Of a stretch of 10,551 nt of DNA, positions 3,001 to 6,000 are shown in pieces. The position numbers are program-made. Each line of letters opens with the position of its first letter. The first letter of the stretch is position 1. This stretch comes from a virus (Duplodnaviria; Heunggongvirae; Uroviricota; Caudoviricetes): IMG/VR virus record IMGVR_UViG_2585427761_000024, positions 1-10,551 of that record. One strand, 5' to 3'.

Positions 3001-6000
3001 AGGGCAGGGACGGGTTTATGCAGAATTATTGAATATTGCTTTTAATGATGGAGTTAATGTGCTCAGAAACAGGATATTAAGCGCGCTCCCTGGAATGGGA
3101 GGGCGAAACTCTTTGCAGGAAAGAATATCGGAGTGTGCCTTTACTGTCGATATTGATAAACTTCAATGTCCTGGTGAGGTGCTTCAATGTCCAATTACAC
3201 TGGAGCAGCCTGAAAAAGGTATTTTTGTGAAGAATTCAGATGGTTCAGATGTATGTACTTTATTTAATGCCGCTGCATTTTCTCGTTTGGTTGGTGAAGG
3301 CTTACCCCACCCACTGACTCGGGAACCAATAACGGCATCAATAATTGTAAAATATGAAGAATGCATTTATGACGATACCAGAGGAAATTTCGTTATAAAG
3401 GGTAACTGAAATGAATATTACCCTTTATTTTATTTAATGAAACATCCTGCAAACTGATATGAATTACTGAATGAGGTTTTTATGCCTGTTACCACCTTAA
3501 GTATCCCAAGTATATCTCAATTATCTCCTGCAGGAGTACAGTCTTTGCAGGATGCTGCCAGACTTGAAAGTGGAATAAGAATATCCATTGGTAGTGGCGA
3601 ATATTCTGTTCACTATGTCCAACTACTGGATAGATTTTCAGTTGAACCGGTGAGAGGAGGCTTACTGGATAGGCTATTGGGGCGTGAGCATCGAATGGAG
3701 AGAAGGGCTGTGGCTCTGGAAAGACAATTAAATGGAGGTGTCGATTTTTTAAGTAGTGTTAATAACTATTTTCAGAGTGACATGGCAGAACACAGAGAAA
3801 ATAAAACAGGTAATAAAATATTAATGGAAAAAATAAATTCTTGTGTATTTGGAACGGATTCTAATCACTTTTCTTGCCCGGAGTCATTTTTGACATGCCC
3901 GATAACGCTGGACAAACCTGAGAATGGAGTGTTCATGAGAAACTCACAAGGTGCTGAGATATGCTCTCTATATGATAAGGATGCGTTAGTACAACTTGTT
4001 GAAACTGGTGGAGCTCATCCTCTGAGTCGAGAACCTATAACAGAATCAATGATTATGAGAAAAGACGAATGTCACTTTGATACAAAAAGAGAAGCTTTTT
4101 GTTGTAAGTGATAATTAATGATATAAATATAGTTTTATGTGCTTTTATTTTTTACTAAAGCAAAATTAAGTTATTAAAATGGAGGGAGAGGAATGCCTGT
4201 AGATTTAACGCCTTATATTTAACCTGGGGTTAGTTTTTTGTCTGACATTCCTCAAGAAACCCTGTCTGAGATACGTAATCAGACTATTCGTGGAGAAGCT
4301 CAAATAAGACTGGGTGAGTTGATGGTGTCAATACGACCTATGCAGGTAAATGGATATTTTATGGGAAGTCTTAACCAGGATGGTTTATCGAATGATAATA
4401 TCCAGATTGGCCTTCAATATATAGAACATATTGAACGTACACTTAATCATGGTAGTTTGACAAGCCGTGAAGTTATAGTACTGCGTGAAATTGAGATGCT
4501 CGAAAATATGGATTTGCTTTCTAACTACCAGTTAGAGGAGTTGTTAGATAAAATTGAAGTATGTGCATTTAATGTGGAGCATGCACAATTGCAAGTGCCA
4601 GAGAGCTTACGAACATGCCCTGTTACATTATGTGAACCAGAAGATGGGGTATTTATGAGGAATTCAATGAATTCAAATGTTTGTATGTTGTATGATAAAA
4701 TGGCATTAATACATCTTGTTAAAACAAGGGCGGCTCATCCTTTGAGCAGGGAGTCAATCGCAGTTTCAATGATTGTAGGAAGAGATAATTGTGCTTTTGA
4801 CCTTGATAGAGGTAACTTCGTTTTAAAAAATTAAGATAGCAATGGCGGGTTAACTTTTCGTAAAATGAAATTAATTCTCGGTACGACATGTAAAACGCGG
4901 CACCTCGTATGCAAGAACGTACTGCGGTTGGCTGGTGAACTTTCGATAGTGCTAGTATTGAATGATTTCCAGCCGTTACCGATTTACGTGTTTATTAGTG
5001 AACAAACCACTCGTCAGAAGATTCCCAGGTATCTTTCAGAGTCTCCTGAACAAATGTTTTTGCAGAATCCTTATCTGCAGTGCGTGTAACAGAAAGCCCA
5101 TCATTGCTGGTGGCTTTTACGATCACTTCTACATCGTCATAACGCTTACTGATGCGCCGAGTTAATTCTTCCTTTAACGCATCCACAGCACCGTTTGGCA
5201 TTTTAGTCATTTTCTCTTTGGCTATGCAGATTTCAATACGCATAAAAATCCCTCTATACTGTGTTTGTATACAGTGTTATTTTTATCTGTATAAATAAAC
5301 AGTGTCAAGAGGTCTTGTTTCTGCTCTTTTGGAGTTCTTCAAAACGATTATGTAAAGATTTCGGATACAGTTCGGTATATACCTGCCATAGCACGTTTAA
5401 TGAACGATGCCCTGTAACTTGAGCGACTTCCTCAATACTAAAACCAGCCTCAAATAAGCGACTTGCCCCTTCTCTACGCAAATCATGATATCGCAGATCT
5501 TTAATACCTAATTTGCTTCTTACCCTCTGAAATCCTGCGGTAACAGAAGTGCTGTTATATGGAAAAATGAATTCTGATTTTTTTGGTTGTCGCTGGACGA
5601 TATCCCAGGCTTCCCCAAGCAAGGCAACTTTCATATGGTTACCTTCCTTTTTACGTGGATCTTTCCTATCTCTTACTAGTATAGATTTTTGTTCTTGGTC
5701 GAGATCTTCCCATCGTAACCGGCATACTTCTCCGATTCGCATACAGGACCACACAGAAAATTTGAGGATATCAACGAACGGAATTTTTGAGCATTTATGA
5801 GTAGATCGTTGTTGAAGGCCTTCAATGAGCATGTCCAGTTCATCAGATGCTGGTCTACGATTACGACGGTTTGATTTACCAATCAAACCGAGTTTAAGTA
5901 GATATGGACGAGCGCTTTTCGCCGGGTTTGATGTGTAATTGATTCCGTATACAGGTTTTGCCGCATCCAGAACACTGCCAAGATAACTAACATCGTGGCT

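Follow-up and report, generated by a model that had tools for sequence, protein, structure and literature searches.

Results

Genomic context of the locus

The window, i.e. the whole 10,551-bp stretch of DNA that has been analysed here, matches E. coli O157:H7 strain PV15-279 with 100% identity, and is located there at the integrase end of a defective lambdoid prophage in dusA. The prophage is approximately 38 kb long and is inserted at the 5' end of dusA, with a displaced dusA fragment being found at its far end; it carries an insertion of ISEc8 (IS66 family), has no replication genes, and its portal and J genes are frameshifted. The repressor of this resident prophage is an S24-family protein, of the LexA family and the CI type. 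On the cargo side, the RefSeq gene order is J, lom, the tail fibre gene and three genes of NleG-type effectors; these are followed, on the opposite strand, by a DinI-like gene and the integrase gene (int), and then by dusA, pspG, qorA and dnaB. The gene that is next to the DinI-like gene, past the end of the unit that we refer to as “the cassette”, is nleG (4238-4834), and the two genes are convergent. The features of the cassette and the neighbouring integrase gene are listed in Table 1.

The region that contains the cassette, when used as a query, has matches at seven places of the source genome and at up to eight places per genome elsewhere. Separately, a truncated dinI fossil is present in most E. 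coli genomes.

Table 1. Features of the dinI cassette and of the adjoining integrase gene (window coordinates).
Feature	Position	Strand	Basis and remarks
dinI moron cassette, 417 bp: promoter, two LexA operators, gene, 3' hairpins, terminator	4892..5308	-	BLAST boundaries
Terminator hairpin (arms 4919-4926 / 4896-4903) and T-tract (4892-4895)	4892..4926	-	Comparison with relatives; weakened in this lineage
DinI-family gene (82 aa), closed by tandem TAA TAA stops	4995..5243	-	Pfam PF06183, PHROG 189
Shine-Dalgarno AGAGGGA, 5 nt upstream of ATG	5249..5255	-	Direct sequence reading
LexA box 2 (20-mer 5257-5276), over the predicted transcription start (~5271-5273)	5259..5274	.	Motif match, approximate HI 4.6
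-10 element: AAAAAT (18-nt spacer) or TAAAAA (17-nt spacer)	5279..5285	-	Promoter scan
LexA box 1 (20-mer 5285-5304), inside the -35/-10 spacer	5287..5302	.	Motif match, approximate HI 6.1
-35 hexamer TTGACA, holding the int stop TGA (5305-5307)	5303..5308	-	Sequence and promoter scan
Tyrosine integrase of the dusA-inserting prophage	5305..6402	-	Pfam PF00589 and RefSeq annotation; neighbour, outside the cassette

The DinI-family gene and its product

An earlier, sequence-only reading had assigned the minus-strand gene to the dinI family, and profile searches agree with this assignment: the product matches the Pfam family DinI (PF06183) over profile positions 1-63 of 63 (E 1.6e-18, 67.2 bits, the cutoff being 24.2) and PHROG 189, “RecA filament binding protein DinI”, over positions 71-149 of the 151-position profile (E 9.5e-31), while the solved DinI structures (PDB 1ghh/7ywa) are matched with an E-value of 2.2e-12. 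The sequence matches support membership of the DinI family, and the identity with K-12 DinI is 45%.

The residues of E. coli DinI that touch RecA have been located by cryo-EM (PMC9926225): they form a hydrophobic pocket (L13, L21, W71, W77 and F78) and an acidic patch (E24, E69 and D76). According to the alignment with K-12 DinI, the equivalent residues of the window protein are M15, L23, W73, W79 and F80 for the pocket and E26, D71 and E78 for the patch; five of the eight contact residues are thus identical and the other three are conservatively replaced. The open reading frame is intact in all 156 copies that have been sampled (42 DNA alleles), with a pN/pS of 0.11: as judged from these alleles, the DinI-like protein is under purifying selection.

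The promoter and the LexA boxes

Two perfect CTGT-N8-ACAG palindromes, of the 16-bp form with an AT-rich centre that gamma-proteobacterial LexA operators have, are located upstream of the gene, at coordinates that agree to the base with those of the sequence-only reading: box 1 (CTGTATAAATAAACAG, 5287-5302 on the plus strand) and box 2 (CTGTGTTTGTATACAG, 5259-5274 on the plus strand), which are separated by 28 bp from centre to centre. Along the minus strand, the elements follow each other in the order TTGACA (5308-5303), box 1, a single A, TAAAAAT, box 2, AGAGGGA and the ATG at 5243. The combination TTGACA-18-AAAAAT, with 10 of 12 consensus matches, is the top promoter-like site that the promoter scan has returned within 4600-6600; both boxes overlap it, and a promoter is annotated at the same spot in phage mEp460. 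The perfect -35 that had been described is confirmed, while the -10 is imperfect: the proposed TAAAAAT is called by the scan as AAAAAT with an 18-nt spacer, or becomes TAAAAA if the spacer is taken as 17 nt. Likewise, box 1 had been said to fill the 17-nt spacer exactly; it does lie within the spacer, but covers 16 of its 17 positions. Box 2 covers the predicted transcription start, as had been proposed.

The strength of the boxes has been estimated with the Berg-von Hippel heterology index (HI), the matrix of which was rebuilt from 24 E. coli LexA sites, the dinI site among them having been checked against the K-12 sequence; the HI values are approximate and indicative only. On this scale, where the 24 training sites span 1.3-9.2, both boxes (4.6 for box 2 and 6.1 for box 1) fall within the approximate range of the recA, lexA and uvrA operators. 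Boxes 2 and 1 are also the top two HI sites of the window, and comparable sites occurred at a mean of 0.01 in 100 shuffles. With respect to the bare motif, the window has no CTGT-N8-ACAG matches other than these two boxes, where 200 dinucleotide shuffles predict 0.10; two matches, at any separation, were reached in one of the 200 shuffles. A putative further LexA site, which is intragenic, is located at 3624-3643.

The conservation of the promoter has been examined in 26 unique variants that can be aligned without gaps. The 16 CTGT/ACAG columns hold a single minor-allele count, compared with 20 in the 16 inner columns and 42 in the 28 remaining columns outside the -35; because the promoter sequences are related, this contrast counts as support and not as a formal test. 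Box 2 is kept in 60 of the 60 upstream regions examined, and the conservation of both boxes extends to every occurrence of the cassette, the double operator being limited to the E. coli cassette of the attachment-site end (the window, PhiR12_5 and, in a weaker form, BP-4795). From the sequence, the promoter is supported as holding two LexA boxes of operator quality, located where LexA would block RNA polymerase.

The 3' region

By pattern scan, no canonical terminator is found 3' of dinI, but comparison with the relatives reveals a hairpin at the end of the cassette: in most of the relatives it has a folding energy of -19 to -24 kcal/mol, with compensatory changes and often with a T-run after it, whereas in the window the energy is -9.2 kcal/mol, i.e. 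the hairpin has decayed in this lineage. The 3' region as a whole folds with a z-score of -2.75 against shuffles. Rfam gives no match in the window, so the conserved 3' region fits no described RNA family and is best read as hairpins and a terminator. Small indels occur among the relatives just past the dinI stop codon. A “capsid protein” pseudogene that RefSeq places in this area (window 4865-4984) has no family support and has been set aside.

The cassette as a mobile unit

The boundaries of the cassette have been mapped by BLAST, with the region being compared with 85 related loci. In contexts other than int, the homology ends upstream at 5304-5311, and a downstream boundary recurs at 4892-4901; beyond the -35, the upstream sequences are wholly different, so that homology to the window begins at TTGACA. 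At least five unrelated upstream contexts are found among the 60 viral loci that include enough upstream sequence.

The cassette occurs in mEp460, cdtI, YYZ-2008, CP-1639 and many Stx1a-, Stx2a- and Stx2c-converting phages. Its site in these phages is always the tail-fibre/cargo end, adjoining the attachment site, while the integrases or the att sites differ; it reads convergently toward the local cargo, which is nleG, nleC or cdtABC. Among the lambdoid prophages of E. coli, the cassette is widespread and ordinary.

A moron of the lambdoid phages is an additional gene that is inserted between conserved genes and brings along a promoter and a terminator of its own. Here, a promoter and a terminator surround one gene, the boundaries are sharp and the neighbours vary; given these boundaries and the promoter/operators/gene/terminator content, the unit 4892-5308 is a classic phage moron, a textbook example whose sole difference from other lambdoid morons is the predicted SOS gating of its promoter.

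Comparison with known LexA-controlled genes

The closest parallel in the host chromosome is K-12 dinI (b1061), an SOS gene whose product binds RecA filaments: the two proteins belong to the same family and are of similar length (82 aa here and 81 aa in K-12), and in both cases a LexA box is located shortly upstream of the ATG. The K-12 gene, however, has one operator (ACCTGTATAAATAACCAGTA), while the cassette has two, together with the perfect -35; moreover, the cassette is carried by phages, is mobile and can occur in multiple copies. The more distant DinI homologues (36-67% identity), which are those of mEp237 and of phages of Klebsiella, Salmonella and Aeromonas, carry one strong LexA box each, 14-19 nt before the ATG, and K-12 dinI is arranged alike. 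These cross-genus homologues have been gathered by tblastn against phage records, a peptide-pattern scan of contigs having been too specific (4 close loci).

Promoters with more than one LexA box are known from lexA (two boxes), recN (three boxes) and S. enterica dinI (two boxes) (PMC8072944, Table 1). The cassette resembles them in having several boxes over a single predicted promoter; the second box of S. enterica dinI is very weak (HI 17.6), whereas both boxes of the cassette are strong by the approximate HI. A dinI-like gene of strain CFT073 co-varies with sulA, umuD and recN (PMC2817434). A DinI-like domain under LexA control also occurs in Tum of coliphage 186 and in the tum genes of Fels-2 and PSP3, which are split (PMC3121763); Tum, with 146 aa, combines an antirepressor with a DinI-like part, and the window protein is without the antirepressor half.

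LexA control has been demonstrated for the dinI homologues of the Salmonella prophages Gifsy-1, -2 and -3 (Lemire et al. 2011, PMC3121763), which are induced 5-23-fold by nalidixic acid (PMC8072944). They share with the cassette a prophage-encoded DinI homologue and a promoter with a LexA box. The Gifsy gene, however, has a single box, has the replication genes approximately 1.3 kb upstream of it and is the first gene of a LexA-controlled dinI-gfoA/gftA-irsA operon that includes an antirepressor (PMC3121763), whereas the cassette of the window is monocistronic, has two boxes and is located at the tail-fibre/cargo/att end. The cassette varies from Gifsy only in its doubled operator and in standing alone, at the end that adjoins the attachment site.

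Alternative explanations

Since the prophage of the window is defective, the cassette might be an inert relic, carried along in a dead element with no present function and with its boxes merely inherited. The decayed terminator of this lineage and the dinI fossil of most E. coli genomes fit such a history, in addition to the insertion sequence, the missing replication genes and the two frameshifts. The cassette itself has a different record: every sampled copy of the gene is intact, its pN/pS is low, the residues that contact RecA are retained, and the contact bases of the operators are kept while the neighbouring bases drift. Because of the purifying selection, we regard an inert relic as improbable, although it is the alternative that fares best.

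A second alternative concerns the contact between the cassette and int, where the int stop codon is located inside the -35 hexamer, an arrangement that is exactly the same in 78 of the 78 close int loci. The sequence-only reading had proposed that this overlap physically couples int read-through with dinI initiation; extended further, the LexA boxes would serve the integrase, with SOS-coupled int expression or read-through, and the overlap would be a selected design. The overlap does exist, and transcripts of int may run on into dinI, since the pattern scan finds no terminator-like site between the two genes. The functional part of the proposal is not supported, however: two integrase relatives (88-89% identity) that lack the cassette are also 365 aa long, and ...RNKSS-TAA is their end, at this very codon; the junction is TCTTAACTGTAT in these relatives and TCTTGACACTGTTTAT in the window. 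Because the cassette-free relatives stop at this codon too, the cassette was joined to int at its stop codon, with the -35 now providing the TGA; as read from this comparison, the overlap is an insertion (recombination) junction and no regulatory device. In addition, the boxes travel with dinI and not with int, accompanying it into at least four contexts other than int, and they cannot repress int initiation, because they are located downstream of int. Nothing suggests a selected coupling of int and dinI, and we consider it very improbable that the boxes serve the integrase.

Still less probable is a module of the Gifsy type, in which dinI would lead a LexA-controlled operon whose true payload is a small antirepressor that acts against the prophage repressor. 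Beyond the documented Gifsy-1/2/3 arrangement (PMC3121763), the order dinI, small ORF, DUF1367 is found in mEp237, Klebsiella ST405-OXA48phi1.3, Aeromonas pAEv1818 and SEN34. At the present locus, in contrast, dinI is followed by the tandem stops, the structured RNA, the terminator hairpin and the convergent nleG; the lone downstream minus-strand ORF (4719-4889, 56 aa, antisense to nleG) is located beyond the cassette boundary at 4892 and has no family match, and a self-cleaving S24 repressor needs no antirepressor. The combination that characterises the Gifsy type, i.e. dinI, an antirepressor and irsA/DUF1367 in one transcript, is absent from this locus, and no downstream ORF is conserved.

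Lastly, a chance origin of both palindromes, for which the AT-rich intergenic DNA and a motif with only eight specified bases could be invoked, has a negligible probability given the shuffle frequencies described above and the placement of two sites, 28 bp apart, ahead of a gene of a known SOS family, and is excluded by the conservation of the boxes across contexts.

Discussion

The architecture of the locus, the family membership of the gene, the boundaries of the module, its mobility, the conservation of the operator bases and the purifying selection on the protein are established. Taken as a whole, the unit is in our judgement very likely a self-contained, LexA-repressed moron of lambdoid prophages, which combines a strong promoter of the sigma-70 type with two LexA operators, a DinI-family gene and a terminator.

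With this self-contained moron, the promoter would be off in undamaged cells, where LexA dimers would occupy box 1, between the -35 and the -10, and box 2, at the start site. DNA damage would lead to the formation of RecA filaments and thereby to the self-cleavage of LexA, and the cassette would fire early, together with the SOS regulon. The phage DinI would then be accommodated in the groove of the RecA filament and stabilise the filaments, and at a high dose it may compete with late substrates of this groove, such as UmuD and repressors of the CI type; an opposite effect of DinI at low and at high dose has been described (PMC6590174).

The tuning of prophage induction by a phage DinI is structurally plausible by analogy with the DinI-RecA complex (PMC9926225), and the idea that a phage DinI may restrain the induction of Stx phages has already been voiced (PMC8456039). 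For the prophage of the window, which is defective, the question of an effect on its own induction does not arise. Non-polar deletions of the dinI homologues in Gifsy-1 and Gifsy-3 did not significantly alter induction (PMC3121763), which, as the one genetic test of a phage dinI, lowers the expectation of a strong phenotype.

A wider role may be considered for multi-copy strains. Both Stx1 and Stx2 phages have the cassette, and the copy numbers are those of the query matches given above. The DinI cassettes of co-resident prophages might act jointly, setting the damage threshold and the timing of Stx-phage induction and of SOS mutagenesis in EHEC: the pooled DinI, fired early by the cleavage of LexA, would fill the groove that is shared with the CI-type repressors and UmuD, and the extra operators would also titrate LexA. 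We consider this joint action unlikely, though less so than any of the alternatives to the moron itself.

LexA-controlled dinI homologues of prophages are already an established finding, and annotations of phage genomes routinely include the gene; the double-operator cassette is possibly a minor architectural variant of this theme. In the searchable literature, we have found neither the two operators of the E. coli cassette nor its boundaries as a moron explicitly described; what has been found is the work on Salmonella, along with brief references to DinI of phages. The cassette is a clean and portable example of a probably SOS-gated phage moron, and its value is mostly one of annotation, as each copy adds two unannotated, predicted operators to the LexA regulon of multi-copy EHEC strains; if the pooled phage DinI does shift the threshold of Stx-phage induction, the cassette would be of greater importance.

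The defective prophage and its cargo

The prophage that carries the window (L181, the whole prophage region of PV15-279) is defective: replication genes are missing, its exonuclease gene is interrupted by ISEc8, and its portal and J genes are frameshifted; its repressor is an S24 LexA-family protein, “ymfK”, and the host lexA gene is located only ~4 kb from its far end. The dusA 5' end in the window resembles the fragment of dusA that was displaced to the opposite end of the prophage, but the two are not identical, with the longest exact run common to both being 16 bp, which fits a prophage that provides a replacement 5' end for dusA.

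The three tandem effector genes belong to the NleG family of type III effectors (Pfam PF06416, E 1e-42 to 4e-47), and are labelled in RefSeq only as DUF1076 proteins. In the tail-fibre gene, the middle region consists of collagen repeats, and the Phage_fiber_C domain occurs again in a second, small ORF that follows this gene.

Within the middle nleG gene, the stretch TACTGGATAGATTTTCAGTT has a score of the kind expected for a true LexA operator: by an approximate matrix built from E. coli LexA sites, its heterology index is about 7.1, the third best among the sites of the window, and none of 150 shuffles contained any site at an index of 7.2 or lower. In three related loci the counterpart is TACTGGATGGATTTTCAGTT, where the contact bases are retained.

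Coordinates of the features discussed
Feature	Locus	Positions	Remark
Defective prophage	L181, PV15-279 record	5173494-5211429	
Tail-fibre region	window	1135-2725	
Three nleG genes	window	2831-4834	tandem
Middle nleG gene	window	3482-4111	plus strand
LexA-like site	window	3624-3643	within middle nleG gene
nleG gene nearest dinI	window	4238-4834	convergent with dinI
“Capsid protein” (RefSeq)	window	4865-4984	partial pseudogene, between nleG and dinI
dinI terminator hairpin	window	4892-4926	
dusA 5' end	window	~6488-6605	
Longest exact dusA run	window	6536-6551	
Displaced dusA fragment	L181	10495-10599	other prophage end
dinI fossil	L087	3001-3161	counterpart of window 4894-5052

Relatives of the dinI cassette

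Two loci with related integrases (L179 and L180, 88-89% identity) carry no dinI cassette just past the int stop, and their int genes terminate with TAA at an identical codon position. Comparison of the junctions, TCTTAACTGTAT vs TCTTGACACTGTTTAT, suggests that int and the cassette were joined through short microhomology. In the DinI homologue of phage BP-4795 (L094), an arginine is located where the RecA-contact tryptophan W71 aligns, and box 1 of the gene is degraded (CTGG...ACAA), a possible sign of a decaying copy.

The 3' end of dinI

The terminator hairpin of dinI is decayed in the window (-9.2 kcal/mol), while in most relatives the same hairpin is strong (-19 to -24 kcal/mol) and in many cases has a T-run; with this decay, an SOS-induced dinI transcript could extend antisense into the convergent nleG gene. 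The “capsid protein” annotation looks spurious, because its ORF has no match among Pfam or PHROG families and its coordinates coincide in part with the hairpin region 3' of dinI.

Of 5426 complete E. coli genomes, 5186 contain an unannotated dinI fossil of ~160 bp (84.5% identity) in the interval from ykgJ to ecpE; it comprises the final 58 nt of a dinI-like gene and its 3' hairpin region. Since the fossil follows ecpE immediately, shares its strand and has kept its hairpin intact, it may now serve as the terminator of the ecp operon.
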